Shown here: positions 597 to 52,900 of the stretch, piece after piece
Layout: every line of letters begins with the position of its first letter
How positions within the stretch are numbered: the stretch's first letter is position 1
Source: Azolla caroliniana
Lineage: Eukaryota; Plantae; Polypodiophyta
Direction of reading: 5' to 3'
Assembly (NCBI GenBank): GCA_043228905.1
Contig: JBHGNT010000009.1
Span: forward strand, 2,294,001-2,358,000
Length of the DNA stretch: 64,000 nucleotides
Notes under the pieces: model-generated
What the model was told of the DNA's origin: nothing
The model's database searches: none
Seen by the model: the letters and a program-made list of their open reading frames with translations, nothing else
Made by a program: the position numbers and the translations under genes

Positions 597-1060
597 GAAG
601 ATTTGGCTAGATACTCGGGATTTTTTTTTTGAGTGGATTCCGTTCAAACTGTTGCGACCCAAGCTTCGAAGAAGATGTCGACGTCCAAGAAAAGAAGATA
701 ATAACAAACATGAAGACAATAACAAGACAAGATGACAAGAATTTGTATTACCGTAAACCAAGATTACAAGGTGTTGAACCGGAATGGTTCAACACTAAGC
801 AGATCTTTGACTTATATACTATACATAAGATTTGGCTAGATACTCGGGATTTTTTTTTGAGTGGATTCCAGTTCAAACTGTTGCAACCCAAGCTTCGAAG
901 AAGATGTCGACGTCCAAGAAAAGAAGATAATAACAAACGTGAAGACAATAACAAGACAAGATGACAAGAATTTGTATTACCGTAAACCAAGATTACAAGG
1001 TGTTGAACCGGAATGGTTCAACACTAAGCAGATCTTCGACTTATATACTATACATAAGAT
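597..1060. repeat. Tandem duplication, 2 x ~229 bp, covering leader, PBS and U5/R of the Tcn1-like LTR
   Basis: atttggctagatactcggg at 601 and 830; near-identical copies. Confidence 0.9.
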
Positions 1061-1243
1061 TGTGCATGATTGTCATTTGGTATGCCAAGTGGCCCGCCAT
1101 TTGGCGATCATCTATTGTGTCTACTCCATAGTTCTTGAATAGTAATAATATGAAAATACATTTGTTCATTAAGATAAGTTGTTGTAATGGTTAGAGTGTA
1201 AGACCCTTGTTATAGGTCACAAGTTCAAATCTTGATATTGACA
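879..1243 (-). mobile_element. 5' LTR of the Tcn1-like element whose gag is at 1-588
   Basis: TG...CA ends (tgttgc...ttgaca); TATA-like motif and palindrome at 1000-1024; self-priming PBS-like 12-mer at 865-876. Confidence 0.7.
1173..1238 (+). promoter_or_regulatory. tRNA-like Pol III A/B-box cassette at LTR end
   Basis: TGTTGTAATGG (1180)...AGGTC-ACAAG-TTCAAAT-CTTG T-arm-like hairpin. Confidence 0.5.
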
Positions 1244-2048
1244 TTTTGTGATACTTGATGATGATTGACAAAGTTTGGAAGTAGACACGAAGACTTAAGA
1301 AAACAAAATGGATTTATATGTACTTACATGACACTACCATTCGCTCATCTAATAGTCATTGGACTTTAACTAGCTTTGGGTGTTTCGTGTTGGCTCCCTC
1401 ATAATCTTTGAAGCATGGGGTTAAGGTGTCCCAAGTCCTCTAAAAATCATGTAGCAATGTGTTGAATTCATGGAATTGGACATTCGTACCATGTGATTAG
1501 AACAATTAAGATATCTCTATGCTTGAAGATTTAAGAGTCATAAATACCTATTAGTCTCTCAATTTACCACAATTGACCAATGTCAAAATTTTCACGTTTT
1601 TGATATGATACAAAGAAGTTTGACAATTTTAAACCACTTTTTGAGGTTTGTCATGAATGACTAAAATATCGGGCATTGGTGCCAAACACTTTGGAGGAGC
1701 CATGTTTTTGTGGTTTTGGTTGAAGTGTTGATAAAGTCCCGATAGAACTTCAACGACATGAAGAATCAAAAGTTCAACTAGTGCACAAAGGAACGAGCAC
1801 ATATTCCTCAATAATGGAGTTCAAAAACATTATACCAATGTTCTTCTTTGACAACAAATGTGGGACAATAGATGAGACCATCATATCAAAGGAACTATTG
1901 TGACAAGGATGCATGATTTGGTAGTACAATTCATGTACTAAGAACCTTCAACATTTGCCACATTGACATGGGCTAGGTTGGAATTTTATTTAGGCATTTG
2001 TCCATGGGGAGTTCGCATCTATGAAACTCCATTTTATGTAATGGTTTC

Positions 2049-4758: not shown

Positions 4759-4858
4759 NNNNNNNNNNNNNNNNNNNNNNNNNNNNNNNNNNNNNNNNNN
4801 NNNNNNNNNNNNNNNNNNNNNNNNNNNNNNNNNNNNNNNNNNNNNNNNNNNNNNNNNN
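4759..4858. other. Assembly gap (100 N)
   Basis: Run of N; standard unknown-size scaffold gap. Confidence 1.
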
Positions 4859-14240: not shown

Positions 14241-14705
14241 CCAAGAAGCAGAAAATTGTAGATCTATGGATGTTGCTAGCACCCATTATCGTACCGCAAG
14301 ATGTACCAGGGTATTTTTAGCAAACAAATGGCCTCCAGCAGAATCTATTAAGCTAATATGGCACATGCTAATAACTACATTGAGGGCCCAATATGAGCGG
14401 ATTGATGGAACAGATGATGCTTCAGATTTAATGAGGCTGAAATTCAGAAAACGATGGTGTACTACACCGATGGCTACAGAAATTGGAGTGGAGATACGAT
14501 GGCAGTACGTAGTACCGAGATGGTTGTTCCCCCCTCCCATTAGATGATAGAGGGTCATGAATGACACGACAAACATGGGCTATTTAGTGTAAGATAAATA
14601 AGTGATGTAGTCCATATGGAAGTAGGTAATGTCTAAAGTTGTGTATTGTATGTCATTTTAACTAATGGAGTATATTCTTCTTTTGGTAAAAAATAAAATA
14701 AAATT
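14241..14705 (+). mobile_element. Possible 3' remnant of a LINE (ORF2 C-terminus plus A-rich tail)
   Basis: Trp/Pro-rich C-terminus KFRKRW...IRWQYVVPRWLFPPP followed by a short UTR and an A-rich run at ~14688; resemblance only. Confidence 0.35.
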
Positions 14706-15930
14706 ATATAATCACGAGATTTTATGATAAGGGTTTTATTCTACACATTTTGTAAATCGACCAGGCCAATTAATTAAATTGAAACTCAAAACAGAATCTC
14801 TTAGTAATTGAAGCAGTTTAATATATCTATACATCTAACCTTAAAACCAATACTCAATTTTTTCAAATCCAATTACAAACAACATTGAACAAAAAATTAT
14901 ATAATCACGAGATTTTATTCTACACATTTTGTAAATTGACCAGGTCAATTAATTAAGTTGAAACTCAAAACAGAATCACTTAGTAACTGAAACAGTTTAA
15001 TATATCTATACATCTAACCTTAAAACCAATACTCAAATTTTTCAAATCCAATTACAAACAACATTGAACAAAAAATTATATAATCACGAGATTTTATGAT
15101 AAGGGTTTTATTCTACACATTTTATAAATTGACCAGGTCAATTAATTAAGTTGAAACTCAAAACAGAATCTCTTAGTAATTGAAGCAGTTTAATATATCT
15201 ATACATCTAATCTTAAAACCAATACTCAATTTTTTCAAATCCAATTACAAACAACATTGAACAAAAAATTATATAATCACGAGATTTTATTCTACACATT
15301 TTGTAAATTGACCAGGTCAATTAATTAAGTTGAAACTCAAAACAAAATCTCTTAGTAACTGAAGCAGTTTAATATATCTGTACATCTAACCTTAAAACCA
15401 ATACTCAAATTTTTCAAATCCAATTACAAACAACATTGAACAAAAAATTATATAATTACGAGATTTTATGATAAGGGTTTTATTCTACACATTTTATAAA
15501 TTGACCAGGTCAATTAATTAAGTTGAAACTCAAAACAGAATCTCTTATTAATTGAAGCAGTTTAATATATCTATACATCTAATCTTAAAACCAATACTCA
15601 ATTTTTTCAAATCCAATTACAAACAACATTGAACAAAAAATTATATAATCACGAGATTTTAATCTACACATTTTGTAAATTGACCAGGTCAATTAATTAA
15701 GTTGAAACTCAAAACAGAATCTCTTAGTAAGTGAAGCAGTTTAATATATCTATACATCTAACCTTAAAACCAATACTCAAATTTTTCAAATCCAATTACA
15801 AACAACATTGAACAAAAAATTATATAATCACGAGATTTTATGATAAAGGTTTTATTCTACACATTTCGTAAATCAACTAGGCCAATTAATTAAGTTGAAA
15901 CTCAAAACAAAATCTCTTAGTAACTGAAGC
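14698..15930. repeat. AT-rich satellite with alternating 193/179-bp monomers (372-bp higher-order repeat)
   Basis: ttatataat unit starts at 14704, 14897, 15076, 15269, 15448, 15641, 15820. Confidence 0.95.
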
Positions 15931-16416
15931 ATACATCACAAGCATATGCCACAATTCCTTAATAGTCGTCGCAAGCTAATAATTCAACCATTATTTTTAC
16001 AGGCATGACCATAAAGTATTTTATGGTAAGTTATACCGTAGTATTTTACACATGAGGATAACTTGTGAGGGTTAAACCTCCTCACTTGCCAACCAACCAC
16101 AACCTCGAAGATTAAAAAGAGGGCAACCTCTCCCTCATACAAATGAGAAGGCAACCCCCAATTTGAGACCACCCAATTTGAGACAAACCTCCTCACTTGC
16201 CAACCAACCTCCTCATACAATTTGAGACCACTACCATCACTAATTTTTAGATAATATATTGGATGTATTGATCCATAAAAAGCACCACTAAAGATAGCTA
16301 TGGATCAAAATTTCTATACATAATGCAGACACCCCCTAGTTGATCATACTCTAGTAGCAGCTTTATTAACTATGAGGCACTTCTTTCAATGATCTTCTCT
16401 CTAGTCCTTGGTAGCC

Positions 16417-17697
16417 ATGGACCTGATGATGCCTTGCAATGCTCGACTCCAATTTCGTTACCATCACGCGATGATTGCTGCGGCCATCCTATTTCTAGCT
16501 TCTTTAATGGTGCTCTATTCAGGGTCTAGTGGAGGCCTTCGGTCCGTGTTGCATGACATGGTGTCGGTGATTCGGGACAGCTACTGCGTCCGGGAATGGG
16601 CGCCGCACCAGCATTTCTGGCATGACATGGATGCCCACCCTCTCCCAGCCTGCACCATGGAGACCTGTTTCAACCGCTCGCGTTGCGATGCTTCCGACAT
16701 TAAGCATCTCAAAATCTACGTCTATAAGCACGAGGAATGCCACTACCGACATGCCGAGCATACGGAGCTTCCCTACTATTTCCGTGCTTTATCGGAGTCT
16801 CCCTGGGTGACCGATGATCCGGAGTCCGCATGCCTTCTCCTGGTTCTGCTCCCGCCCAAGCCATCGGGAGAACCGCATTGCCCGTTCCGCTCTTTGCCGC
16901 ATTGGAACGGGGGCGTAAATCACGTGATTGCATCGTTGTCCGACACGCTGCCATCGGATATCATCGCAAATCCTGCCTCCATTGGAATGGCCTCTATGGC
17001 TGCATCGTGTCTTCAGCTGACTTCGTTCCGCCCCGGATTTGATGTCAGCATCCCTTTGCCGGGACTGTCTCACTTCCGGCATCTCGCACCGCTTCCACCA
17101 CGGGCGCGCAAATACTTCCTTACATTCAAAGGCAAACGCTATATTGGAAACAAGGAAGGCAATTTCCGCAGCGATCCATCGTTCCGCTCCTTAAACAACC
17201 TTCGGGATGTGATAGTTGTGACCTCGTGCAACCATACGACAAACAACAGGATTCGCGCCCGATGTCCGCACCTCAACACCGGGTGCGACGATGATGAGGC
17301 CATGTTCACGAAGTACAGGTATGAGGAGCTAATGAATTCCACATTCGGCCTAGCGCCAGCGGGGAGGTCGTCATCGTCATATAGGATCATTGAGGTGATG
17401 AGCGCCGGGGCGATCCCAGTTATCGTGTCCGACAATTACGTGGAGCCATTGGAAAGTGGCAAGTTGATGATCGAGTGGGGTCGGTGCGCATTGAGGTTCG
17501 AGACGATCGACATTGTTAGCATATTGCCGGCACTCCGCGCCATGTCCGAGGAAGAATTGAGAAGCAGGCAAGCCTATTGTGTGAGAGTGTATGAGGAGTA
17601 TTTGAAGGATGACAATGCTCTCCTTGGGTCCGTCGTTAGGTTCCTCTTCCTACGCCTTAACTTTACTAACAATAACACCACCTCTAAATCTAGCTGA
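16417..17697 (+). CDS. Exostosin-family (GT47) type II membrane glycosyltransferase, intronless
   Basis: gccATGg start; N-terminal TM (AMIAAAILFLASLMVLY); LKIYVY, WNGGVNHVI, FRPGFDVSIP, RKYFLTFKGKRY, STFGLAPAG, AGAIPVIVSD motifs; intact 426-aa frame. Confidence 0.9.
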   Translation: MDLMMPCNARLQFRYHHAMIAAAILFLASLMVLYSGSSGGLRSVLHDMVSVIRDSYCVREWAPHQHFWHDMDAHPLPACTMETCFNRSRCDASDIKHLKIYVYKHEECHYRHAEHTELPYYFRALSESPWVTDDPESACLLLVLLPPKPSGEPHCPFRSLPHWNGGVNHVIASLSDTLPSDIIANPASIGMASMAASCLQLTSFRPGFDVSIPLPGLSHFRHLAPLPPRARKYFLTFKGKRYIGNKEGNFRSDPSFRSLNNLRDVIVVTSCNHTTNNRIRARCPHLNTGCDDDEAMFTKYRYEELMNSTFGLAPAGRSSSSYRIIEVMSAGAIPVIVSDNYVEPLESGKLMIEWGRCALRFETIDIVSILPALRAMSEEELRSRQAYCVRVYEEYLKDDNALLGSVVRFLFLRLNFTNNNTTSKSS

Positions 17698-20626: not shown

Positions 20627-21659
20627 TGTCACGGACCAGTATAATAGAGTAGAACAAGACGAGAATATGAACTAGGAGAGAGAAAAAGAACAAGAACGTG
20701 ACTTATCATTCTGTAACTGGTGTTGTTCACCTTGATTAGAATCAAGGTGCACCTGAGTATTTGTACAAGAAGGTAAAGGTATGTATGCTAGCTACGAACA
20801 GAGAATGCATGAGGATGCATGCAAGCTAGGAATAGAGAATGCATGCAAGCAAGCTAGGAAAAGAGAATGCATGGAAGCAAGCTAGGAAAAGAGAAAGCAT
20901 GAGCATGCATGCAAGCTAGGAACTTCCAACGTTCAATCTACCATACATGAAGTTGAATTTTATACAAGGATGCATAGATAGATGTAGCTAAGTTGGTAGG
21001 GTTGCCCAATGGAGACCAAGAGGTCTTGGGTTCAATCTTTACCTTCCACCGTGGTGTGGCATATGTTTATGGCCTTATTCTCCCTGGCCTAAAGCCACCT
21101 CCGAAGATCTGCGACAGACTTCAGTGGGTACCGTTCATGAAAATTGTGAATGGCTTCAGGAGATACATTTTGTAAATTTTCAACTGGTTCCCACGTGGCA
21201 TCCGAAATGGGGTAACCTTTCCATAAGACCAAATATTGAAGTCGTCGTCGTCGTCGCAAGCTGGAGTCAAGGATATGGTCAACCTCGTACTCCTCCCTTG
21301 TTGATAATTGCACGTTTGGTGGTGGAGGAGGTTGTCATCCTAGAATTCGAGAAGGATGGTATAGTTCAAGGAGAGAGACGTGGATAAAATTGTGGATCCC
21401 GAAAGTTGGGGAAAGCGCTAACCGGAATGCGACTGGGTTGATTCGCTCAATGATACGGAAGTGACCTAGGTTTTTGTAGTCTAGCTTCACGCAAGGATGA
21501 GTCATGGTGATGTGGCAGCGTAGCAACCAAACCATGTCACATACTGCAAAGGTTGGTGTAGGCAAGCGATGACGGTTAGCATGATCCTTATATTATTTGT
21601 TAGAGACACGGAGCTCAAGGGAGAGGTCATGATGGACATCTTGTAAAGTGCGGGCATGC
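20627..21659 (-). mobile_element. 3' end of a Tcn1-like chromovirus: 3' LTR (~20627-21074), PPT, integrase C-terminus with chromodomain
   Basis: EEYEVDHILDS...QYLVLWKGYPISDATWEP chromodomain (21089-21313); KLDYKNLGHF (GPY/F-like); 26-28-bp tandem repeats in the LTR. Confidence 0.85.
20978..21050 (+). promoter_or_regulatory. tRNA-like Pol III A/B-box cassette in LTR (second copy ~24513-24585)
   Basis: TAGCTAAGTTGG (20985) and GGTTCAATC(C/T) (21029); T8-to-G53 distance 45 nt. Confidence 0.7.
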
Positions 21660-24310
21660 TGTCGTGGAGAAAACCGCCCCTAGGAGGAATCAAGGGGAGG
21701 AGGCGTGACCCAATTCTTTTCGTGTGTGTGTGTGTGTGTTTATGAATTGTACATAGCTAGGAATAGATCGGTTGATGTACATTTGTACTAGGAAGGGTAT
21801 TAATTGTCTAGGAAATCGATGCGTATCTCTATGCGAAAGGATAGAGAATAAAGTTGATGTGTTTTGATGTAACGGTCTCCTCGGCGACCCATAAAAGGGA
21901 GGGGAGAAGAAGAAGATAGGTATCGTGTTTTGGCGAGGAGGAAGTGTTGTCGGACTGGGGACCGAGCTCTCTCCTCCTCAACCGTTGCTCTCCACTATGT
22001 TTCTGTGTCGGTTTCCTTTGCTGCGTATAAGGCCGTGTGCTTCTAGCAGAAGCTCCACCGTACGTTCCCTATGTTGTCCATGTGTGTGCGAGGAACCTCC
22101 GTTTTGGGTCTATTGCCAGTTTGCCGGTTGTAATCGTTGTTGACATTGTAATTGAATCTTCCGTTCCCATCTCTCACTCTCTCTCTCTCTCTGTGTTTTT
22201 GTGAATCCCTCTCCCTCTTCTTTCTCACGCCCCTTGGTTCAGGGCCCCCGTGGTCCCGCCTCATTTCACACATGAGAGCGTAACAACAAGACATTATTTG
22301 GTGAACCCGACGTGAAAGAAGGCGACAAAGGAGTTGAAGATGAGGGGATCTGAGCTTGCTGAAGGTATGGCAATAGCCGTTGACCGGCTAGTGAGCACTC
22401 GTGAGGGAACGGGTGCCCTTGATAGGGCCATAGAATCGATGGTCGACACCATAGGCTGATTCGGTGGGAAGAATGCCACGAGCTATTTGGAGGCCTATCG
22501 GGCCGAAATGATCATGAGGGATATCCCGGAGGATAGGCAACTGTCCAGATTCCCTCGAGTGCTGACGCCGAGCATCCACGCGGAGGTGCTCGAGATGTTG
22601 GTCGGATGCCAGGCTTGGGTGGAGCTTGAGGGGCGGCTCCTCGAGAAGTACAGGTATGACGATTCGCTTCGACTGTCGAAGCGGGACTTCATGGCTTGGG
22701 TTGAGAACCCTAGGAAGGGGAGGAACACGTCGGTGCTCCTCCAGGAATTCGAACAACGGTTCGCTCAGCTGTCGCCACTGGATCGGACCGTGCTTGACAC
22801 GACCAAGGTCTTCCTGTTTGTCAAGTAAGGGCTCGTGCTGGGTCTCCTATTGGAGACGGATGAAGGCCTCACGACCGACTAGGCCATGGTCAGAGGGGTC
22901 TGCGCCTGCTTTGACAAGCGGTGCGAGTGGAACGATGAGGGCTCGATGGCGTCGGGGGCCGGTCCCGGCGAGGAAGCTCGAGGAGCCGATATCGGTGCTG
23001 CCTGGGAAGGAAGAGACACAGAATCGGCTCGAGATGGCCCCTACCTTGAGTGGAGTTGTCCAAGGTTGTTCCGGAGGAACAATTCTAGAAGAGTTGATGC
23101 AAATGGTGTGCGACCTCTAGATCACACAAGCACGGAGGGACGGCGGCGTTCAACCTCGTGATTGGAGGCCACTGACGGGGCAGCGATGCATGTGGTGTGA
23201 CGTTGTCGTTCACATTTGGAGAGAATGGGCGGATTTCGCAGAGGCACTCCGGGCCAACGTGGTGTACCTTTGGAATGGGCGGGTACATGCCGACGACACA
23301 CGAAAAGCCCTAGAGTTGAACACCGGGCACGGCAGGATGAAGCGCTTGCTGGAAGAAGCCATGGTGCGAGATGGAGAGGCCCTCCACTACTCTGCGTCGG
23401 TGGGTATCTTGGTCGGGGGCGGCGAAGGTCGGAAGGCGAAAGACTCCGGATTCTGGTCGCTGGTGTTGGAAGGCCTCTCCAAGGTAAGGCTAAAGAAGGA
23501 GGAGGCAGACCGTTGTCGAGTTGTTACGCACGTGCGTGTAGATGGGGTGGGACCACGGGGGTCTCAGACTAGGGAGGAAGGGATGCTGAGAAACCCAACT
23601 TCGAACACGTCCTGGAGGCAACCGAACATGAGAGAGAGAGTGAGAGTGAGAGAGCTTGCACGCGCTACACCGACTCTTATGCACGGGAAACAAATGGGGG
23701 GTGGAAACACCTGACACTACCAGAGACGCGGATGTGCACAATCAAACATATATATATATTTCAATGGAAGAGATACAACCCCGGTTTCGAGCCGGACCAA
23801 GGTAGGTTACAACCGCAGTCTGTTGCGAAGCCGCCAATCAGGGAGCTCACGGCTTGTTGCGCCGAGCGGGGTCTTGCACAGGAGACCGAGCAGAAGCAAA
23901 TCCTAGACAAACATGAACTCTCAACCCTCGCGAGGATGAAGAAGAAGAAGAAGGAGAAGAAAGAAAATACCTAACCCTAAGTCTAACGGTATACCCTCCT
24001 AACTCAAAATGGGCAACCCCTTCAAAAAGGGCGCTCTCTTTCCTTTATAGAACAAGGAGAGGGTTGTGTAACAATGTGGGATAAATCCCTTATTACATGG
24101 GATCCTCTGTCCCGAATTAACTACTGTCTGGCGGCATGATGGCGCCCCTATCCTTTACTTGATTTGTACAAGGGTGAGTGCACATGCTCCACCCCGTCGA
24201 TTCTTCCGATATTCTCTGATTTCTCACTTTAAACCGCACGTCCACTGGTTTGTGCCAAATCTGGAGAAAGGCGAAAGATTCGGGCCGGTGAGAAATCTTC
24301 ACGACATCCG

Positions 24311-25197
24311 ATAGAGAATGCATGTAAACAAGCTAGGAAAAGAGAATGCATGGAAGCAAGCTAGGAATAGAGAATGCATGTAAGCAAGCTAGGAAAAGAT
24401 AATGCATGTAAGCAAGCTAGGAATAGAAAATGCATGAGCACGCATGCAAGCTAGGAACTTCCAACATTCAATCTACTATACATGAAGTTGGATTTTATAC
24501 AAGGATGCATAGATAGATGTAGCTTAGTTGGTAGGGTTGCCCAATGGAGACCAAGAGGTCTTGGGTTCAATCCTTACCTTCTACAGTTGTGTGGCATATG
24601 TTTATGGCATTATTCTCCCTGGCCTAAGGCCACCTCCGAAGATCTGCGACCGACTTCAGTGGGTAACGTTCATGAAAATTGTGGATGGCTTCAGGAGATA
24701 CATTTTGTAAATGTGTAACTGGTTCCCACGTGGCATCCGAAATGGGATAACCTTTTCATAAGACCAAATATTGAAGTCGTCGTCGTCGTCGTCGCAAGCG
24801 GGAGTCAAGGATCTGGTCAACCTCGTACTCCTCCCTTGTTGATAATTCCACGGGTGGTGGTGGAGGAGGTTGTCGTCCTAGAATTCGAGGATGATGGTAT
24901 TGTTCAAGGAGAGAGACGTGGAAAAAATTGTGGATCCCGAAAGTTGGGGAAAGCGCTAACGGGAATTCGACTGGGTTGATTCATTCAATGATACGGAAGG
25001 GACCTAGGTTTTTGTAGTCTAGCTTCGTGCAAGGATGAGTGATGGCGATGTGGCAGCGTAGCAACTAAAACATGTCACAAACTGCAAAGGTTGGTGCAGC
25101 CAGGCGATGACGGTTAGCATGATCCTTATACTATTTGCTAGAGACACGGAGCTCAAGGGAGAGGTCATGATGGACATCTTTTAAAGTGCGGGCACAC
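24311..25197 (-). mobile_element. Second copy of the Tcn1-like 3' fragment (partial LTR plus chromodomain)
   Basis: Collinear with ~20832-21659, with scattered substitutions. Confidence 0.9.
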
Positions 25198-25505: not shown

Positions 25506-28500
25506 TGTCGTGAAGAATTTCGGCCATAGGAGAAAACCGGGAAACATTGGCTACATCGGCGGGGTGCAACGTGTGTACGCACCCATGTACATTTAGTGTG
25601 AATATCGAGGGCGCCTTTATGGCGCCCAAGAGTAGTCAAGTCGGGAGAGACGATCCCATGTAAGTCGGGATTTGTCCCACATTGTAACACATCCCTTTCC
25701 TTGATCTATAAAAGGAAGGGAACGCCCTTTGTGTAAGGGTTGCCCAGTTTGGATTAGAGGCTATACCGGTAGGTTTAGGGTTAGGTTTCTTCTACTTCTT
25801 CTTCTTCCCCTTCTTGTTCATTTAGGGTTGGCTGCAACTTATCTCCTGTGCAAGACCCCGCTCGGCGCGACGAGCCCGAGAGCTCCCTGACGGCGGCTTG
25901 ACAGCAGACGACTGTTGTAAACTATCTTGGTCCGGCTCAAAGCCGGGAGTGTATTCTACTTATATATATATACATATACGTTTGCGTCTGTCTGTGTATA
26001 TTGGCGTCTTGTTGGTGTCGGGTGCTCCCCTCTTTCCTTGCGTTTCCTGTACAAGAGGGCGTGTGTGTGCGTGCGCGCGCGCGTGTGTGTGTGTGTGCAC
26101 GCGCGTGAGACGGTGTCAAGCACGCTCTCTCACTCCCTCTCTCCCTTCGGCTGCTTCCGGTGCGTTTCAGGGGTGCCCTAGAAACGGTGAAGTGCGACTT
26201 CCTACGCTCCGTCGCTCCCTAGTCCAAGACCCCCGTGGTCCTGCCTTTCTCCACGCACGCGTGTAACAACGCGACATCTTTGGTGAACCCGACGTGAAAG
26301 GTGGCAAGGGAGGATGGAGTCGGAAGACGACGACCTTGCGGAGATGGTGGCCGAAGTGGTGTTGGAGTCGGCACGAGTGGTGATGAGGCGAGAAGCAGCG
26401 CAACAAGCGGTTGGGCGAGTGGTCGAAAGAGTCGGCCGTTTCAACGGGGACAAAGTCCCATCTTACTTGGAAGCCTACAACGCGGAAATGGAAGAGCATG
26501 GCGTAGACGAGGCGTTGAGGCTGGAGTTCTTCTACCGGGTCGTAGCTGTCCGGATGCATGCGGAAGTAATGGAGCTCCGTGAGGCTCGTGGTTCGTGGGA
26601 GGCCTTCGAAGAGGCGCTCCTGAAGGCATACGGAGGACGACGGAAGAGCCGGGGACGACACCACTTCGACCAGTCGGTAGCATCGGCAAAGACCCACCGG
26701 GGTGCGACGAAGGCGTTCTGGGCGTTCGAGCGACGACTTGCTCGGCTCCAAGAGCGGGAACAAGGTTTGGTGGGGGCGGACAAAGTCCTTTTGTTCGTCA
26801 GGTCGATCAACCGAGCGGAACGGGGAGCCATCAGGATTGAGCTCGAAGACGATGATGGAGCGAATGGGCTTACGGAGGATTGGTCAAAGGTCGGAAGGGT
26901 GTGCCAAAGGCTAGACAACGAGCGAGCCGAGAAGGCTAAGAGGAAGGTATGCGACGGCGTGCCATCACAGCAGGAAGAGGCCGGACGGCAGGGAGAGTCG
27001 GCAAGGGTCGGCGTTGGGGCCAGGATTGCGGAGGCGTACGCAGCGCTCAAAGCGATGCTCGAGGAAGAGGGAGGATCGAGGCCAGAAGCTGAGACCGAGG
27101 AGACGGACTTGCCCCACGCGACGGCGGAAGATCGGTACGACGGTACCACGGGAGAGGGTGCAGAATGAAACGCCCTCTCGACATGCGGAGAAAGATCGAC
27201 CGAGGACGAGGTCGAGGACGGTGAGGCGGCGATCGCCGAGTCGAGCGGAAATGAGGGAGGTCGGGCACGGAGGCCCGAAGCATCGAGCGGGGAGAAGATG
27301 GGTGGTGGTGCCGCGACCTTACGCACACCGGGCCTAGAGACTCCGGCAACCGGCCCGAGAGCCGATGTGAGACCTAGAGTGACGGGCGGTGGCGGCGGCA
27401 AGGAGGGCGACCACGACGGCGACGATGTGGGAGAGGGTACAGAGCGAGCGACCCTCTCGACTGGTGGAAAGAGGACGGCCAAGGACGAGGCCGAGATACC
27501 GATCGTGGAACCGGAACGTTGGGACCAGCGGTCTCGGGCGTGTCAGCCCGAGATCCCGGTCATTGGAGAAGCAAGCCGAGACGGGGCTTGCTCGATCGGT
27601 AAGAAGACGACTGCCGACCACGAAGAGTCGGTGGCTACGGACAAGGGCGTAAAACGGACGGGTGATTCTTTGTGTCTTCCCACACTTGCTCCCGAGACGA
27701 TGGCAGTCGGGCCCGAGTACCCACGTGAGTCCGAAGCGGAGGAAGGCGGCGGTGGAGGGCCAAGAATCATCGGCGAGACGATACGGGGAAGGAGCGGACG
27801 AAAGCCCACGGACCCGATTCCGGAGAACTCGGCATTCGGGCCCGTATGCCCATGTCAGACCGAGGAGATGGATGGCGGTACCGAGGAGTCCTGGCACGAT
27901 GCCAGCGAAGTCGGATGGGGAACGGCCTGCGAGGAGGCCGAGGGCGGACGCGGCACGAGGTTATCGGCATTCCGATACGGGTGGTGCATGATCTGGTCGT
28001 GGATCGTTCGATCGGGTCCGGTTTCGGCATGAAAGTGCCGATATGAAAGGGGGTGCGGGACGAGCCGCCCTCTTTTACATGGGGAGAAAGACCGACTGAG
28101 CGAAGGTCGAGATTACGAACGAGAACCGGGCGGAGCGGACTCTTGGATAACCATTCCGGGAGGGAGGAAGAGAGCAGGCCTACGAAGAGGCCGAGGACAT
28201 GGTACGTCGGTACCACGGGAGAGGGTGCGGAGTAAACCGCCCTCTCGGCATGAGGAAAAGGACGACCCGGGACAGGGTCAAGAAGGCGACGAACGCCTAC
28301 GGAGGATCCTTCACACCGGTTCTAGAGACTTCGGCAGTCGGCAACGCGGTCGACGTAAAACCAAGATACTGACGGTGGCGGCGAGGTGACGAAGGCAAGG
28401 GCTACGGAAGGGCGATCGACGGAGGATCCTTCACACCGGTTCTAGAGACTTCGGCAGTCGGGAACGCGGTCGACGTAAGACCAAGATACTGACGGTGGCG

Positions 28501-41837: not shown

Positions 41838-42837
41838 TGTCAAGGAAATCCTCGGGGATGCGTAGAAGTCGGGTAGGACCACGGGGGTCTCGAACCAAGG
41901 AATCGAGAAAACGAGGAGGGAGGAGTTTGAGGATCGCGTAGGTCTAGAGACCGCGGGGAAACAGGTAGGGCTAGCGAACAAGAGAGGGTAAGAGAGTCGT
42001 GCATAGACGCAGACACGGGCAAGACACTGAGAACAACGTCTATTAGGCAGAGAAGGTTTCTATTAAACAACACAGGTGCGCGGTGCTGTGGGTGATTACA
42101 ACCGGATCAGAGCCGGTGATGGTGCACAGAGCTTGCCAATAACCAGACACAAAGGTACGTTGGCACGCTGAAGGTCGATCCCCTGGACGGGAGCAGTCGG
42201 GCGTCTGTCGCGTGCAGGGGAAGCACCTTCAGAAGATTTGTCCTTACTCTCCTCTCTGTATATCCTCTCCTCTCTAAAAATGGCATCCTGAAGACAGTCG
42301 AAGGTCGTCCCTTTTATAGCACAAGGGGCGATCGTTACAAGCATACATGACGTGTCGCTTTCCCTTCCAAGATTCTTTCTCCTGATTCACTCCCCTCGTA
42401 ACTCTCCCTACATATGCGATGTTCTATTTTTTCTTTAATGCTCTAACTACTTAGTGCCCCTCCGTATACTAATGCCTAGTACTTTCCCTATTTAATTCTC
42501 TCGAGGCGTGCATTCGCGTAAACCGGTGTTCCTGCGCATTTCACCTTGTTTCTACCTATGGCCCGGAATCTTCACGACATCCACCCCCACTAAACAGCAC
42601 ATCCTCCGGTATGTGCCAGATTGTGAATTTAGTGGAGGGTTCCGGTGTTGTGTGGCGCATGACACACGTGCCAAACATTGTGATGTGCGCGTCACAAGCG
42701 TGGACAAGCATCAGGCCTCTATCCGCTAGTGGTTATGGAGGATTGATGATGGGATCGTTCAAGATAACGGAACTGCGGAAGGACTAATGCAAGCCAGAAG
42801 TATTAAAGATAAATTGATAGATAGATACAGGTGGGAA

Positions 42838-42910
42838 TTCCTATTCCCGGTTTGAACCTTTGACTTCAAAATTGAGATAGAAGACACCTTGCCAACGAGA
42901 TAACTAGAAC
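42838..42910 (-). promoter_or_regulatory. tRNA-like A/B-box cassette in the LTR of element C (copy ~51423-51495)
   Basis: Minus strand TATCTCGTTGG (42902)...AAGTC-AAAGGTTCAAACC; T8-to-G53 distance 45 nt. Confidence 0.55.
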
Positions 42911-45205
42911 TTATTAATCAATACATTGTCTCCTATCCTGGAGGTGTAAGGTTCAAACCCTTACTTGCACCTCATTGTATACGTTAAGCTTATTTTATAT
43001 ATTTGTATAATGAACACCCAAACACACATCACACGTACACATTAATGTGTTAACATACACGTCTAACCATCACTCCTTTTATACGTGTGCACATTGCACC
43101 AAGTTCTTGATTTCCCTCGTTTCATGCGATTTTCCCACTGTTGCCGAAAATCTTTACGACATCCACCCCCACCAAACCGCACGTCCTCCGGTACGTGCCA
43201 AGAAGAGAATGTGAGATTTTGGCTACAATGTGAGATTCCTCCACGTCCTCATTGACCTCACTCACGTTTGTGGGTTTCGCCTTACTATCTTCATTGTTGA
43301 GATCATCGAGTTCGAGACCCTCACCTTGTCTTTTCTTGAAGATCTTTAGTCTTTTTCCTACAATCGATATGGCCAGCCTTGATCCGTCTAGCTCCACATA
43401 TGATCCGAACCACCTTCTTGCAAACTTTCTTGTCGTCTTATGTTGGTTGTCAAAGCTATTGTTGCAGACCAATACCCAACCTTCTTCTTCGATCTTCTTG
43501 GGGTGTTGACAATGTGTCTTCTCAAAACGAATCTAAAAACCGGGTGCTTCTTCTAATTAGCCAATCCTTTTCTTTGAGATGGGAGATAGAAATGTTGGCA
43601 ATACAACCTCCTCTATTTAGTTGAACATCCCACCATCTTGATACATCTTTTCCTTCCTTCCTGTGTGTTGTCTTTATAATCACTTCTTTCCTTTCTTCTT
43701 TACAAATAATAACCATCCATTTTACCACAACCTCATCTACTTACATCATCATTATAATAATCCTTTGAGTTAACGACATCTTTGATCACCGAATCTTTTT
43801 TTACAAATAAGCATCATATTCAATATCATCTACCCTAAAATTATCCTTCCCAAACACACTCACAACACCAATATTATCGTTATACATATCCCAAACCATC
43901 ATAGCATTTTCTAGATTATCTTCAATATTATCAACCTTAATCCCATCCTTCCCACACATGCTCACAACATCAACATCATCATTATACACATCCCAGATAA
44001 CATTTCCTAGATTTTCCTTGCTTATACCCGTGTGATCATTATGTAACCCCACATCCACATGGACATATTTTTGTAGAACATCCTCATCATCACAAGTACC
44101 TATTCTATTTTCATAATGGATATCCTCATGAATGTCACCATTTGATCTAGTGAAACTCTTATAAAATCTATCACGAAGAAAACCAAGGCAACCTAAAACA
44201 CATGATTTCTCTTCGTCACTCTCACCCTCATCATTACCCCTATCATAACCAAATCCACAGAAAGTGCACAACTTTCTATCATCATAACCCTCATTCTTCT
44301 CATGGCACTCACTCTCACCGTTAATAATGCATTCTCCCTTACTATCATCAAGCCCTAAATCGTGTGTTTCATTTCTATCATCACATTTAAATGTAAAGTT
44401 TTCGTCTTTTTCTAACTCCTCTTGTTTGTGGCTCTTATTAAACCTATCATAATTGTCATCAAAATTTAAACCATGAGAGTTTTGATCCCAACCTTTCTCA
44501 CCATCATGGCTTCCATCGAGTGTTTTTTCATTAGCACAACCATGAAGAGCTCGACATTGATTTCTCCTCTTGTGTTTATAGTAATCTTTGACACAATCAG
44601 AACTTTGTAGATCTTGAGCAGTCTTTGTGAGTTTGTAATGATGTTTGTCTTTGTCATAATCGTGTAGATCTTGATCTTTCTCTTCAAGCCCACATTCTTT
44701 ATCTGATGTCTCTTCATGATTGCATCCTCGAGTATCTTGGTCTTTCCCCTTGTGCCCACGTTCTTCATCACATGTCTCTTCACGACTGTGTCCTTGAGTA
44801 TCTTGGTCTTTCCCCTCGAATGTGTCAGGAATAGTACTAAACAGAGATAGGATTAGTACTAAACAGAGAGAGAATTAGTACTAGAGAAGGGAAGTACAAT
44901 TAGAACTAAGGGGACGGGACTGCGTAAGACTCCCGAGAGAGGAAGAGAGAAGAGGAGAGAGAGAGAGAGATAGCAAGGACAAGAGATGATGATAACATAT
45001 TATATATTATAAGAAGAGTAAGTACAAAAGGGCTATGAGGCTAAAGACTAGCGTTGAACCAATTTGGTTCAACATAATGCCTAGTGCCCTCTTTTATAGT
45101 GTTCTCAGGAGTAATCCTGAAGCTTCTAGAATGTTCTAGAGAAATCTGGAATATACATTAATTTCCTATAATAAAATGTAAATTAAAATAATATCCTACA
45201 TATTA

Positions 45206-45276
45206 CAATAGATGATAGAATGGTCAAGGGCTCGACCCATATAACCTAAGGTCATGGGTTCGAGTCTTGCCATATC
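45206..45276 (+). promoter_or_regulatory. tRNA-like A/B-box cassette at the U3 end of the Tcn1-like LTR (copy ~50441-50511)
   Basis: TGATAGAATGG (45213)...AAGGTC-ATGGGTTCGAGTC; T8-to-G53 distance 45 nt. Confidence 0.65.
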
Positions 45277-48200
45277 ATGACACTATCCCCCCTTTAAAAC
45301 AACGAGTGTCACGAGTCGTTTTGGATGGAGGACCCGGTTTGTGTGGATATTGCCGATGGAAGTCTTCAAGAAGCGCACGAGCATTGGTCACATTCTCGAT
45401 CGGTTCCCAAGTACGTTCGCTGGGACTATAGCCTAGCCAATCGACTAGATAGTAGAGCTTGTTGCGAACAATCTTGGAATCAAGGATGGCGGCAACCTCG
45501 TACTCCGGTCCATCTTCAAGCTCGATCGGGGGTGGAGGTTGTATAATACGCCCTGGGATGGTGCTCTCGTGATAGGGTTCGAGGAGAGAACTATGAAACA
45601 CCGGATGTATCCGAAGTTGAGGAGGTAGATCGAGACGAAAAGTGACATCATTAATCTTCCCGATAATACGGAAAGGACCTAATCGCTAATAATCCAACTT
45701 CTCACATGGGTGAGTAGTCTTGATGTGTCGTCGTAGCAGCCACACCCGATCTCCAATGTTAAAACTAGATGGAAGTCGACGACGATCCGCGTAGACCTTG
45801 TCTGTTTGTTGAGCTTGCTGGAGATGAGTAGATAAATCTGCTTGTATCTTGTGTAACTGCTCCAAACGATCCTCCGTGCAAGGATTTGTGGACACCTCTG
45901 GGGTTTCAAGTACACTCCACCGAGGGTGACATCCCGTATAAGCATAAAATGGCAAAACTTTAGTCGATGTGTGGATAGAGTTATTATAGGCAAATTCGGC
46001 AAAGTGGAGAATATCTACCCAGTTATCCTGATGATAGTTGAGAAAGCACCGCAGATACTGCTCCAGCGTTTGATTTGTTCGTTCGGCTTGGCCGTCGGTT
46101 TGTAGGTGGTAGCCGGAGGAGAGGTTACAAGTGACCTTGAGCATTTTAAAAAGGTGCTTCCAGAATTTTGACACGAACTGGGGTCCACGGTCTCTGACGA
46201 TACTATCAGGAAGTCCATGATGCCAACATACTTCACGCATGACAATTTCGGCGGTGTCTTCATTGGAGATTTCCTTAGTACATGTTAAGAAATGAGCCAT
46301 CTTCGTATATCGATCTACCACTGTTAGAATCGCATTGAACCCCTTAGAGACTGGAAGATCTGTGATGAAGTCGAGAGCAATGGATTGCCATGGCTTGCTT
46401 GGAATTCGTAATGGTTCTAATAAACCATAGGGATGATGCCTTGGCATTTTCGCTCTACAGCATGTATCACAAGTCCGAACAAAATCTTCGAGAAATTGTC
46501 GCATACGGGGCCACCAGAATGATCGTTGTACTAAATCTAATGTTTTAGTACTACCAAAATGCCCAGCTGTATATGTGTCATGACAATTTTGTACTACTCG
46601 ACGGCGGCAAGAACCATTAGGAACATACAAAAGTTCTTTAAAGAAGAGTAACCCATCAGGGTATTTGAATTGCCGATAGTCCGTACTTGGTGGTTGTGAC
46701 TGTGAACACGACGCTCGAGAGGGATCAATTTGTGCTAGTATAGCTTGGGCGAAAGCATCTGTCTTCAGGTCCGCACGTATGATATTGATAACGTGGGAAT
46801 CCATGGGCATGCCAAAAACTTGTGTTGCTTGCAGTCGTGCCGGTCCCAAGATTACTTGCTTTTGGTTATCGAAAGCCAGCTCGCCGGGATGCGGTGTTAG
46901 ATATGAACGCCGTGATAATGCATCTGCCTTCCCTTGGTGCTTCCCCGAACGATATGTAATTTTGAAGTCAAAACGCGTGAGGAAGTGGGCCCACCGAGCT
47001 TGACGTCGATTTAACACACGAGCATCCTGAAAGTAGGCAAGGTTTTTATGGTCACTGAATACGGTGACTTGATGAGAGGATCCCTCTAAAAAATGCCTCC
47101 ATTGCATAAACGAGTCCACTATTGCCAATAGCTCCTTATCATGAATTTCGTAATTGATTTCGGTGGCGTCAAACTTGCGTGAGTGAAAAGCCACAGGATG
47201 TAGCTTCTCATCATGACCCCGTTGTGACAGAATGCTCCCCAATGCGAAATCCGATGCGTCAGCTTCGATAATGAATGGTAGTTCCGGATCGACATGAGCT
47301 AGAATTGGAGCCGATATAAACGCCTTTTTAAGACTCTCGAAAGCCATATCTGCTTCTTCAGACCAAACGAACGATTGTCCCTTCCTGGTAAGCTGTGTGA
47401 GAGGCAGAACGAGCTTTGAGTAATCTTGTATAAACTTCCGGTAAAAATTGGCAAAGCCTAAAAAGCATTGCACATCTCGCACTGAGCGCGGAGCCTGCCA
47501 TTCTACCACCATCTTGACCTTAGCTGGGTCCATGGAGATGCCTTTTGATGAAATGACGTAGCCTGAAACTACATTTTTCTAGCTTTGCGTAAAGACCATG
47601 TTCTCGAAGTCGTTTTAGTACTAACAGTACATGAGAATCATGCTCTTCTTCGGTCTTTGAATAAACTAGTAGATCATCCAAGTAGATGATCAGACACACA
47701 TCCAAGAGATCTCAGAATATATCATTTGCCATGTGCCGGAAGACGGTTGGCGCATTAGTGAGGCTGAACGGCATGACCGTATACTCGAAGTGCCCATATC
47801 TAGTGCGGAACGCGGTCTTCCATTGATCTCTTGGTCAAATCCGTAAGAGGTTATAGTTCCCCCCGTAAGTTGATCTTTGTGAAGAATCTGGCACCATTGA
47901 TCCGTTCTAAAAGACTTGAGATAAGGGGAAGTGCATACCTATTGCGGATTGTAACTTTATTCAAGCCACGGTAATCTACCACCAGACGAAGTGAGCCATC
48001 CTTTTTCTTGACGAAGAAAATGGGTGCGCCGGCTGGAGATTTCGAATGTCGAATGAATCCATTCTCCAAATTCTCCTCTATATAGACTCGAAGGACTTCT
48101 AGTTCGGTTGGTGACAAATTGTAGATCGGTCCCCATGGTGGCTCTTTCCCCGGTTGTAAATCGATGGGGTAATCATATGGTCGATGGTGAGGAAGTGTAT

Positions 48201-48810
48201 TGGCTCGTACTTTATCGAATACATCGGCATAATGATGATACTTCTTTGGAAGTTGAACGGTGGACTCCTCTTTAATGGTGTCGGAGGGTTTTAGTGATAT
48301 TGCGAAGAGAAACATTTCTTCCTTGCGTCCTTCTTCCCGCAACTGATGTAGTGAAATGGTGGCAATCTTCTGAGTAGATCCTCGGGTTTGTTGACACTGG
48401 ATTTCTCTTGTTCTCCAATCTATGTCTGGGTTATGTAACTCGAACCATGGTAATCCCAAAACGATGGGATGTTCTGGGATACTAATAATGTTAAATGATA
48501 CTACACATGCTAAGTTATCTAGGACAATATTAACAGGTTCAGACTCTTCTATGATATTTCCGGAAGCAATGGGACGACCATCAATGACAACTACAGAGGC
48601 TGGACACAGAAGTTTTCTAAGAGATATCTGATGAGCTTGGGCAAAATTCCTATCCATAAAGCAAGAATTAGCTCCGGAGTCTAGAAGTGCTAAGACGTGT
48701 ACTGGAGGGGTACTTTTAGTACTAACTGTTACTTGGGCTACGAACACATTACTAACTTGCTTAGAGGGAATGGAACCACTAATGGGCTGCACAGATCTAG
48801 GGCTATCCAA
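45275..48810 (-). pseudogene. pol of the Tcn1-like element (PR-RT-RH-IN-chromodomain)
   Basis: ORF pieces 47851-48810, 47520-47705, 45686-47533, 45275-45601 (EYEVAAILDS...YLVDWLGYSPSERTWEP), broken by stops and frameshifts. Confidence 0.93.
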
Positions 48811-48983
48811 CCAAATGGCTCCTATTTTGGCTGGACTTAGTTGTTTAACTCTTCTTCTAACTGACTAAGGATATCAAATTTGTTCGCTAGATCTAGGCTA
48901 TTAGTACTATTAGTACTATCAGAAATCCCTACTGTAATAGGCTCGGGTTTAGTACAATTAGAACTAGCAACTATTTGGTTTAC

Positions 48984-49988
48984 CTATCTTCTTGGCCTAT
49001 GGGGACAATTTATTGCAATGTGTCCTGGTCCACCGCAGTAGAGACATAGTTGATTTGTTCGGCGTCGCTGCTTTTCTTCTTCGGATAATGGTCCTCGACG
49101 ACGTGTAGTGTCAATCTCCATCGGAGTCGGAGTATTCACTAAAGGCGCATTATAGTACTCCCTGGGTAAAGGTTTTGCTACCATTGAGGTGTAGGTGGGC
49201 TTTGATCTTGCCCTCGGCATCTGTAGCTGTCGTTTCGAACGTTGCTCAAAGAGGCGGTTATCACATCTTACCGCGCGGTTGATTGCTTCTGTTAAGGACT
49301 TTGGCTCTTCAGGGAAAGTCAAGAGTAAATCCTTGACATCGTTGTGTAAACCATAACGAAATTGCTCCATCAACACTTGATCATCCCAAGGGATGTCAGC
49401 GGCGAGTAGACGGAAATCTGCTGCATATGCAGAGGCTGGACGGTCTCCTTGGCGTAATTGCCGGATTTTGTTGATTGTGGTCCTTATGCTGTTAGTATCC
49501 CCAAAGCATGCTTTAAACTCACGTATAAACTCTTCAAAGTTGTTGAGTAATGGAGACTCCTTTTCCAATAGTGGAGCGAACCATGCCAACGTTGAGCCAC
49601 TTAACAGCGTCCCTATTAAACCCACTCGTGATGCATCGGTAGGATATCGGGAAGGATGCATTTGAATAACTAATCGTACCTGATTAAGGAACCCTCTAAA
49701 TTGCGATCGTGTTCCATCGAACTTCGTGGGAAGGCCAATCTTGGGTTCCTTATGAATCCCTTGTGTTCCAGGGCCTTGTTGTTGCATTGCTACGATGGTT
49801 GATTCGAGTTGTTGCACGCGTAATGCAAGTTCCCCATGTTGTTGTTGCGATTGCTGCTTTTCTAAGGAGATTTGTTGAAGATCCCCCAACAACCGTTGAT
49901 TTTCTTGTTCCAAAGCAAGGAACTTCTCTTTCAACCATTGAAACTCCGAGAAAACAGATCGATATTCTTGAGCGCTAACTGTGTCCAT
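48984..49988 (-). CDS. gag of the Tcn1-like element
   Basis: MDTVSAQEY; coiled coil; PTKFDG capsid motif; CLYCGGPGHIAINC knuckle. Confidence 0.9.
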   Translation of the reverse strand: MDTVSAQEYRSVFSEFQWLKEKFLALEQENQRLLGDLQQISLEKQQSQQQHGELALRVQQLESTIVAMQQQGPGTQGIHKEPKIGLPTKFDGTRSQFRGFLNQVRLVIQMHPSRYPTDASRVGLIGTLLSGSTLAWFAPLLEKESPLLNNFEEFIREFKACFGDTNSIRTTINKIRQLRQGDRPASAYAADFRLLAADIPWDDQVLMEQFRYGLHNDVKDLLLTFPEEPKSLTEAINRAVRCDNRLFEQRSKRQLQMPRARSKPTYTSMVAKPLPREYYNAPLVNTPTPMEIDTTRRRGPLSEEEKQRRRTNQLCLYCGGPGHIAINCPHRPRR

Positions 49989-52900
49989 GGGATGAAAAGA
50001 AAAGAGAAATAAGAGATTAGTATGAAGGGAGAGAGACAGAAGGGAAAATTGGTTCAAATTGTCAGGAATAGTACTAAACAGAGATAGGATTAGTACTAAA
50101 CAGAGAGAGAATTAGTACTAGACAAGGGAAGTACTATTAGAACTAAGGGGACGGGACTGCGTAAGACTCCCGAGAGAGGAAGAGAGAAGAGGAGAGAGAG
50201 AGAGATAGCGAGGACAAGAGATGATGATAACAGATTATATATTATAAGAAGAGTAAGTACAAAAGGGCTATGAGGCTAAAGACTGGCGTTGAACCAATTT
50301 GGTTCAACATAATGCCTAGTGCCCTCTTTTATAGTGTTCTCAGGAGTAATCCTGAAGCTTCTAGAATGTTCCAGAGAAATCTGGAATATACATTAATTTC
50401 CTATAATAAAATGTAAATGAAAATAATATTCTACGTATTACAATAGATGATATAATGGTCAAGGGCTCGACCCATATAACCTAAGGTCATGGGTTCGAGT
50501 CTTGGCATATCATGACAGAATGTATGTTCTTCCTTCGATGTCTCTTTGTGATCACATCCTTCTTCAGTGCATATCTCTCTTCTCTTGCGTTTGCAATGAT
50601 CTTCCTGATGACAATCATAATCTCTCCCTTTAAGATTGTGTTCTTTGTCACATGTTTCTCCTTTGTCGAGCTTGCAATGATCCTCGTAACGACCATAGGC
50701 ATGTTGATTTCGATCTCTCTCTTCGAAACCTTCTTCTTCATTGAATGCCTCTTCACGATCACTGTGAACATATCCATGTCTCTGGTCAAGCCCATGTTCT
50801 TCGTCGCGTCTCTCTTCCCAACCGCATCCTTGAATATCTTGATCTTTTCTTACAAGCCCACATTCTTCGTTGAATGTCTCTTCATGATAGTAATCACGAA
50901 TATCTCGATCATCTTCATCTTCATCATTGTTGAGAAGCCCATGAAAAGGTTGAGGTCCGAATCTGGATGTCATAACTGCTTCATATCAATCCGGAACTTC
51001 TTGATATAATCTTTCGGCTTGCCTTGCCAACTTGAGATAATCCATCGCTCTATCCTTATCATCCTGCAACATCATTTCAATGGCCTTCTTGATAAATGCA
51101 AGCATTATCAGTCTTGGCCCACCTTCTCTTCTTATAGACTCTTCTAAGTCATAAGCATCCAAGACCGCATCCATCATTCGTGATGCCTCCATTACCACCT
51201 TGTGTTTTCACGTCGGGTTCACCAAATAGATGTCGTGTGGCGCATGACACACGTGCCAAATGTTGTGATGTGTGCGTCACAAGCGCGGACAAGCATCGAG
51301 CCTCTATCCGTTAATGGTTATGGAGGATTGATGATGGGATCATTCAAGATAACGGAACCATGGAAGGACTAGCGCAAGCCAGAAGTATTAAAGATAACTT
51401 GATAGATAGATATAGGTGGGAATTCCTATTCCCGGTTTGAACCTTTGACTTCAAAATTGAGATAGAAGACACCTTGCCAACGAGATAACTAGAACTTATT
51501 AATTATTATTGATTGCATACATTGTCTCCTATCTTGGAGGTGTAAGGTTCAAACCCTTACTTGCACCTCATTGTATACGTTAAGCTTATTTTATATATTT
51601 GTATAATGAACACCCAAACACACATCACACGTACACATTAATGTGTTAACATACATGTTTTACCATCACTCCTTTTATATGTGTGCACATTGCACCAAGT
51701 TCTTGATTTCCCTCGTTTCACGCGATTTTCCCACTGTTGCCGAAAATCTTCACGACAGCGGGCCATCGGTTACTCGACCTCCTCTCCTGAACTGGTGCTT
51801 TCAGTTCCCGAGTCCGGTTCCTCCTCGTTTTGTCTCTTGAAGGCTTTTATCCACTTCTCGGCCACCGGAGTCGTTATTTGCATCCCGTCGAGCTCCGCGA
51901 GATGATACATGGCATTGTCGTTGACACTATTTACCACGTACGGCCCGAACCATCGCTATGCAAACTTGCGTGTAGACCTATGCTGGTTGTCGAGGCTGCT
52001 GTCGTAGACTAACACCCAATCGCCTTCCTCGATCTTCCTTGGCTGGAGCTGGTGCAGTCGGTCAAACCGGGCTTTGTTCCAGATCCTTGCTTCTCTCACC
52101 CTCGTCGTGGCTCGTTCCACATCTTCCGTTCTTCACTTGAGTTGCCGGATTCGTGCCGCTAGCAACTCTTCTCTGCTCATTTCGCTAGCCCAATCGATCG
52201 CTGCCCACGAGGTGATCGTTCGCTCTACTGGCATGATGGGTTTCTGTCCGTACATTATTTCCGCCGGCATGTATCCTATCACCGAACTGTGGGTATTCCT
52301 GTCCGCCCATAACGCGTACGGGAGTAGCCTCGGTGAGTCGCCGACTCGACCGTTGCACGCGCGTACAATGGCCTTTACTATCGGACCGTGGCCCCGTTCA
52401 ATCTTTCCGTTTGCCTCCGGGTTGTACGCCGTTGTGAGGGACATTTTTATGCCTAACTAATCGAATAGTTCCTCGGCCTCTTCCGTGTCTAGCTCGCCTC
52501 GGTCAACCACGATTTTTTCCACGCACCCGTATCGGCATATGACATCTTCGATCAGAAACCTGCATACTGCCGTGGTGGTCTTGTTCGTTAATGCTCGCCC
52601 CTCTACCTGGTTTGTTAGGTCCTCTCTAGCCAGCACTAGGTATCGTTTCTGACCCTCCCCCATCGGCATCGTCACTAAGTCGACCATCCATTTGAAGTCC
52701 ACGGCCGGGGAGTATGTTGGGTGTAGCTCGTCGCGGTGTCGAACCACCGAGTGCATCTGGCAGCTTTCGCATGTGGACACGAAGTCGTGCACGTTCTTAT
52801 ATATACCCAGCCACCAGTATTTCTCCTTTAACTTCTCGAATGTGGCCCATGTACCCCGGTGTCCAGACCAAGGGCTTTCGTGGAACTCCAATATTAGCTT

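Follow-up and report, generated by a model that had tools for sequence, protein, structure and literature searches.

Pol III promoters within LTRs have hitherto been described for small non-coding elements. The closest described system, Helenus/TRIMp3, is reported to carry in both LTRs a tRNA-derived segment which is conserved at boxes A and B and is non-functional as a tRNA, and a SINE origin with several independent births has been proposed for it (PMC10886601). Helenus elements are described as non-coding and 311-1263 bp long, with the Pol III promoter proposed to drive the element; their autonomous partners, in the words of that account, must use Pol II promoters, and 'not a few' Repbase LTRs are said there to have tRNA-like parts, the analysis itself being limited to TRIMs (PMC10886601). 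Cassandra, as presented in the same source, likewise has a Pol III promoter within the LTR of a plant retroelement, of the 5S type, in a non-autonomous element whose own transcript it drives (PMC10886601). Promoters of tRNA genes bind TFIIIC, upon which TFIIIB is loaded (PMC5911963). According to the studies concerned, tDNA barriers in fission yeast require TFIIIC as well as Pol III and work in either orientation (PMC2040200), and in budding yeast sites with a B box alone serve as boundaries (PMC3395662). The relevant passages of a review of plant barriers name TFIIIC and tRNA genes for yeast and animals alone (PMC9540200).

Here we describe tRNA-type promoter cassettes in the LTRs of protein-coding retrotransposons of Azolla caroliniana. 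The window, i.e. the whole 64-kb stretch of DNA analysed, comes from a genome of 523 Mb and is crowded with nested LTR retrotransposons. Six sites in it contain tRNA-type A and B boxes 43-45 nt apart, the distance between T8 and G53 being 45 nt at five of them and 43 nt at the sixth (Table 1). The spacings of 45, 45, 45 and 43 nt noticed in a first-pass annotation of this DNA were reproduced at every site it had named, and the comparison with shuffled controls that it had proposed revealed an excess of boxes at fixed spacing. In 1000 doublet shuffles per LTR, with both strands scored, the observed boxes were rarely matched (p <=0.001 at five of the six sites, and p = 0.016 at 42902, whose A box has 3 mismatches). 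A strict scan of 864 kb, made up of the window, 200 kb adjoining it, 200 kb near matches to family A and 400 kb at round-number positions, found 35 cassettes vs 1-4 in ten shuffles; genome-wide, the cassette motif has 11,414 exact matches and its reversed control 22.

Table 1. Retroelement parts, cassettes and related features in the window.
Feature	Position	Strand	Remarks
Family D 5' LTR (Tcn1-like)	650..1253	-	3' part duplicated in tandem; gag at 1-590
Family D cassette, antisense	1173..1243	+	A box 1180; T8-G53 = 43
SINE 3' half with its own antisense tRNA-like segment	4108..4227	-	A box at 4115 on +; spacing 46
Family B 3' LTR (Tcn1-like)	20627..21074	-	broken integrase-chromodomain end precedes
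Family B cassette, antisense	20978..21050	+	A box 20985; T8-G53 = 45; homologous to dispersed-SINE head
Family B second 3' LTR, truncated	24311..24609	-	
Family B cassette, second LTR	24513..24585	+	A box 24520; T8-G53 = 45; both boxes mismatch-free
Element C 3' LTR (Phygy-like, non-autonomous copy)	42646..43161	-	516 nt; ~250 nt of most copies missing
Element C sense cassette	42849..42909	-	A box from 42902; T8-G53 = 45
Element C orphan B box of antisense cassette	42950..42959	+	A box gone with deletion
Element A, Tcn1-like Ty3/gypsy chromovirus	44823..50517	-	5.7 kb; target duplication GAATG (5 bp); frames broken by stops
Element A 3' LTR	44823..45282	-	460 nt; 97% identity to 5' LTR
Element A 12-nt LTR segment complementary to PBS	45054..45065	-	34 nt past TATA box
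Element A putative TATA box, LTR Pol II promoter	45091..45098	-	~115 nt from cassette T8; function inferred
Cassette in element A 3' LTR, antisense to A, outer U3 edge	45206..45278	+	A box 45213-45223; B box 45257-45266; T8-G53 = 45
Element A polypurine tract	45283..45295	-	
Element A primer-binding site	50046..50057	-	complementary to A's own predicted 5' end
Element A 5' LTR	50060..50517	-	
Cassette in element A 5' LTR, second copy	50441..50513	+	A box from 50448; B box 50492-50501; T8-G53 = 45
Element C 5' LTR, identical deletion	51231..51757	-	sense cassette from 51487; orphan B box 51546-51555

Other features of the window include an AT-rich tandem array whose units alternate between 179 and 193 nt (14695-15931), an exostosin GT47 glycosyltransferase frame (16405-17697) that is the sole non-transposon Pfam match among 26 frames scanned, and a 100-N gap adjoining a 105-nt tandem repeat (4759-4858), which may stem from assembly.

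Element A encodes gag, protease, RT-RNase H, integrase and a chromodomain, and its cassette occupies the first 75 nt of U3. The Tcn1 clade is described as having a self-priming PBS, a chromodomain with aromatic residues, a 5-bp target duplication and LTRs of ~450 nt (PMC6317226, PMC2864245), all of which find their counterpart here. Rather than a tRNA-type PBS, element A has one that matches a segment of its own LTR, which is the self-priming layout given for the clade in PMC6317226, and it is predicted to be self-primed. A search with PF00385 lists the family-B copy at C9:2315131, and the aromatic-cage residues Y, W and Y can be recognised by eye in the chromodomain of element A. On the other hand, the accounts of the clade in these two sources describe no Pol III boxes in the LTRs (PMC6317226, PMC2864245). 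The element A cassette is also pseudo-symmetric, in that 45213-45282 contains weak A- and B-like words (score 5-6) on the sense strand of the element, 43-45 nt apart.

Families B and D are relatives of element A with a similar layout, and in all three the cassette lies antisense at the outer U3 edge and points outward, as the annotation had it. The two family-B sites, which it had taken for one LTR pair, belong to two 3' ends, each consisting of integrase, chromodomain and 3' LTR. The family-D LTR contains a 235-nt tandem duplication (598-1061) that may be an assembly artefact.

Element C belongs to another lineage, with 22-24% identity to element A in pol, so that what had been counted as four unrelated families falls into two lineages, the three chromovirus families A, B and D being homologous. 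We call this second lineage Phygy-like, a placement made by element features and not by a reference tree: its target duplications are 4-bp NCGN (CCGG, GCGT, GCGC, CCGT), and a search of its loci for a chromodomain gave no match. The Phygy non-chromoviruses, described from a moss, are likewise short elements with a 4-bp NCGN duplication and no chromodomain found (PMC6317226). In the C family, whole LTRs were recovered from 27 of 30 loci, and the full-length LTR reads, in order, a near-perfect antisense cassette, a TATA box and a sense cassette ~70 nt past the TATA box. The PBS of the lineage we take to be that of tRNA-Trp. The copy in the window has lost the middle of both LTRs, and since C elements carry the deletion in both, they transposed after losing the antisense A box. 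The site at 42902, listed by the annotation with the others, is in fact a sense cassette in the middle of a deleted LTR, with a twin at 51487. The middle of the C LTR could conceivably derive from a Tcn1-like LTR, with which it shares a promoter motif by eye; the cassette bodies of the two are, however, unlike (0.28 identity between the boxes).

Some of the cassette-bearing Phygy-like elements have long reading frames for gag and pol, and the identity of their LTRs reaches 99.9%. When Phygy-like LTRs were selected by PBS only, the antisense cassette was present in 4 of 10 clusters, and in an 11-row integrase tree the 7 sampled elements without a cassette fall on one side. Loci selected by the motif added further coding Phygy-like families, all with the cassette antisense in U3 and two with an extra sense cassette. 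In three families (C, L416 and L417) the TATA region lies between divergent cassettes, which are dissimilar in sequence and equal in spacing. In the L417 LTR (L417:383-1480), one sense cassette is accompanied by two antisense cassettes in tandem, of which the outer is shortened, and L416 has an additional outer B box. Cassette-less Phygy-like LTRs of the window have a B-box-like word (7121-7131, 22236-22246 and 26222-26232) ~55 nt before the end of U5, which differs between families and is accompanied by no A box.

The elements described here share with Helenus/TRIMp3 a tRNA-like sequence with boxes A and B in both LTRs, but they are not members of that group. They are 3.4-8 kb long and most have gag/pol, whereas Helenus is non-coding and shorter than ~1.3 kb; the cassettes reside in protein-coding Ty3/gypsy elements of 5-8 kb that possess a TATA box, the main cassette pointing away from the element. 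Sense cassettes, which could drive the element as proposed for Helenus, are confined to some Phygy-like LTRs, where they form a second copy. Our literature search returned no report of tRNA-type cassettes in autonomous LTR elements, although subscription journals, Repbase entries or the supplements of PMC10886601 may hold one.

How widely the cassette is distributed was assessed on copies selected by their chromodomain, with the LTR ignored: 158 matches, of which 149 had a PPT and 122 were distinct, in a pool that is non-random in containing 30 family-A loci. Within this pool, an antisense B box (<=1 mismatch) lies within the first 90 nt of the LTR in 91 of the 95 clade I (Tcn1-like) copies, and the full antisense A and B pair in 67 of 95, while no sense cassette (0/95) was found in the first 150 nt; the outward antisense arrangement is thus a clade-wide one. 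In clade II chromoviruses, by comparison, the outer U3 edge contains an antisense B box in none of 27 copies. LTR ends with a Met PBS, from copia and clade II elements (30 ends in 22 clusters), contained no cassette, three matches near them falling in neighbouring elements. A PPT-TG pattern has 2907 matches in the genome, and none of the 32 pattern matches in viral contigs is a relative. The tie to a heterochromatin-targeting chromodomain that the annotation had drawn does not hold, as the cassette is missing from clade II chromoviruses and present in a lineage without a detected chromodomain; its occurrence in two very distant lineages indicates that the module arose at least twice, untied to the chromodomain.

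Metagenome data extended the survey to 80 loci, of which 7 were excluded beforehand and 9 lost for a short flank or lack of a PPT, leaving 64 usable LTR starts. With putative host-lineage and other-host labels assigned by contig series, the host-lineage LTR clusters have the full pair in 18 of 32 and a B box in 28, the remaining 4 lacking even a good B box; in other-host clusters the full pair is absent (0/8) and a perfect B box occurs in one of 8. Unlike their host-lineage counterparts, then, other-host Tcn1-like relatives mostly have no cassette. In the exception (L327), a poor A box goes with a perfect antisense B box that lies 33 nt inside the LTR; the B box could be a sign of older origin, or chance. 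Integrase trees place the host-lineage copies in two subclades, both with cassettes. The best tree parts the two, and grouping them together is not rejected (p-AU 0.186), so that gains within the Tcn1-like subclades number one or two; across both lineages the sequences point to an estimated two to four. In the abundant family E the B box is perfect, and no A box occurs at canonical spacing. In this family and its kin (L063-L090, L301, L316, L317), the B box lies within an 8-bp hairpin at the extreme LTR end, the A box is weak, and the D-loop-like GG is ~7 nt farther off than it is in the other families.

A probable source of the cassettes is a dispersed SINE of ~215 nt, of which a first look gave ~1900 candidates. 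Its 5' end is fixed, its head resembles a tRNA, and a second tRNA-like part, in antisense, is followed by a GA tail. At the 30 loci compared (L381-L410), the head is common to all, as in a tRNA-derived SINE, the two tRNA-like parts are convergent, and most copies end in an A or (GA)n tail. The usual site is within GA microsatellites, and a look for target-site duplications gave a flanking repeat at 7 of the 30 loci, in most cases GA microsatellite. A reading of this element as a Helitron with a CTAG end was discarded, since the sequence continues to the second tRNA-like part and the GA tail. Two cassettes of family-B type have the SINE head as their nearest neighbour, at 0.76-0.80 identity, closer than any other LTR cassette. 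The cassettes were likely captured from tRNA-derived SINEs, and we infer that transfer went from SINE to LTR, which agrees with what has been proposed for Helenus (PMC10886601).

Such a source raises the question of whether the cassettes are relics: SINE heads captured repeatedly into U3 during reverse transcription, copied along with successful lineages and decaying without a role. The 76-80% likeness of one lineage's cassette to the SINE suits this view, and so do the places where the cassette proves dispensable, namely the clusters without a B box, the cassette-less Phygy-like branch, family E without its A box and other families with A-box decay, and the deleted C LTRs, which kept moving. 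What speaks against it is the pattern of conservation. Over 18 families, which were picked on box score so that box identity is biased upward, mean identity reaches 0.81 for the B box, 0.69 for positions 44-52 and 0.59 for the A box, vs 0.34 in the anticodon arm and on the 3' side and 0.29-0.36 upstream. A comparison of variants within families, free of this selection bias, found consensus-breaking shared variants in 2 of 52 critical columns vs 102 of 697 others (Fisher p 0.035), and any variant in 3 of 52 critical columns (p 0.095). The boxes are better conserved than the flanking U3, and the spacing is 44-45 in 23 of 27 cassettes. Orientation and promoter-side position are furthermore alike in two distant lineages. 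A module that is fixed and conserved across families speaks against sporadic SINE insertion, an alternative already named in the annotation, and we regard relics without a role as unlikely. Judged by these comparisons of sequence, the boxes and their spacing are under selection, clade-wide, in two distant autonomous lineages.

The cloverleaf, by contrast with the boxes, has decayed to background, as the annotation's description of eroded stems had suggested. Watson-Crick pairs in LTR cassettes are near chance (38/126 in the acceptor and 22/90 in the anticodon stem, vs 152/168 and 99/120 in host tRNAs), which fits the silence of ARAGORN and Rfam, neither of which called a tRNA anywhere in the window. 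The AT fraction at -35..-21 of T8 is 0.81 in Tcn1-like cassettes (n=18), 0.82 in Phygy-like ones (n=8) and 0.79 at host tRNA loci (n=13), dropping to ~0.6 beyond -66 in all three alike; upstream, CAA occurs in 4 of 26 cassettes and TATA-like words in 9 of 26, in each case vs 8 of 13 host tRNA loci. The cassettes have the layout of a type 2 Pol III promoter, with boxes at tRNA spacing and an AT-rich upstream zone, and the retention of these together with the decay of the stems is the pattern of a DNA promoter and not of a folded RNA. The host has tRNA-Lys, tRNA-Ile and tRNA-Arg genes in tandem arrays, variant copies included (L031-L039, L048-L050).

The primer site of yeast Ty3 is bipartite, and on this model the 3' U3 of the genomic RNA might, in packaging or strand transfer, bind a tRNA through its complementarity to the D and T loops. 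Every scored U3 cassette is antisense, the orientation that such pairing needs, and conservation falls on the equivalents of these two loops. Beyond the boxes, however, no family matches the sampled host tRNAs, which cover five nuclear isotypes (best match 0.46-0.58), and no parent was found among 39 host tRNA sequences; Tcn1-like elements are predicted to be self-priming, and the AT-rich upstream zone and the sense cassettes would be left unexplained. We consider pairing of this kind very improbable.

The reading we prefer, with a probability of about 0.5, is that the cassettes are SINE-derived Pol III promoters, gained at least twice, that may owe their retention to a role as TFIIIC/TFIIIB platforms next to the Pol II promoter. 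TFIIIC would bind the A and B boxes and load TFIIIB on the promoter-facing side, and the bound complex would keep the enhancer/TATA region of U3 open or insulated, perhaps in only those few copies or cells, or at those few times, where transcription of the element takes place. For the genomic RNA, the predicted source is still Pol II transcription directed by the TATA box, any Pol III transcript from the cassette being a short by-product. The cassette sits antisense in U3, about 115-260 nt upstream of the TATA box, and in this orientation TFIIIB would come to lie on the side of the Pol II promoter. The parallel is with yeast tDNA and ETC barriers, in which A and B boxes or a lone B box form a TFIIIC platform beside heterochromatin regardless of orientation; these are described as host loci with demonstrated occupancy and barrier activity (PMC2040200, PMC3395662), whereas here the platform would belong to a mobile element known from its sequence.

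It is possible, on the other hand, that the Pol III transcript is itself the product, a short antisense U3 RNA that tunes the element as a source of siRNA, as a decoy or by interference with the 3' LTR promoter. Both boxes and the AT-rich upstream zone are retained, as a transcribed Pol III gene requires, and the homologous SINE head must presumably have been transcribed for the SINE to spread; yet neither the body of the RNA nor its fold is conserved. Of 18 families, 8 have the predicted T4 end within the LTR and another 8 have it 9-192 nt past the LTR; in 2 there is none within 300 nt. The annotation's antisense RNA across PPT and integrase is consequently not supported as a conserved product, its predicted terminator being unconserved, and we doubt that a transcript is what selection maintains.

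As for insulation, DNA decay sets limits. In 36 copies of family A, transitions at CG sites amount to 0.071 in the cassette, 0.114 in inner U3, 0.084 in R/U5 and 0.076 in integrase, vs 0.004-0.010 for transitions at A/T sites; CG and CHG sites of the family-A LTR decay at the rate of those in integrase, ~8x background (family E has too few sites). This undiminished decay indicates that the bulk of copies are methylated through the cassette; it argues against the cassette as a constitutive insulator or a general shield from DNA methylation, and the missing footprint is also what relics would give. The annotation's idea of a protected promoter survives in part, as the divergent cassettes around the TATA box suit a boundary or platform and protection from methylation is not seen. 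Insertion targeting to Pol III genes was rejected, a cassette lying within 600 nt in 1 of 32 family-A flanks.

A more far-reaching version of the platform reading, which we offer tentatively, is that autonomous LTR elements of this plant lineage have repeatedly taken Pol III promoters of SINE origin into service as chromatin boundaries that travel with the element, with an outward-facing site ahead of the enhancer and in some families a second past the TATA box. If so, every insertion would bring its own insulated promoter, and more than 11,000 such B boxes would make up the main class of TFIIIC sites in the genome. What is new here is a stable, selected promoter-region part in protein-coding elements of two distant lineages. 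Families with, without and with half a cassette coexist as natural controls, which provides a handle on a possible barrier role of TFIIIC sites in plants and on how silenced retrotransposons retain a usable promoter.
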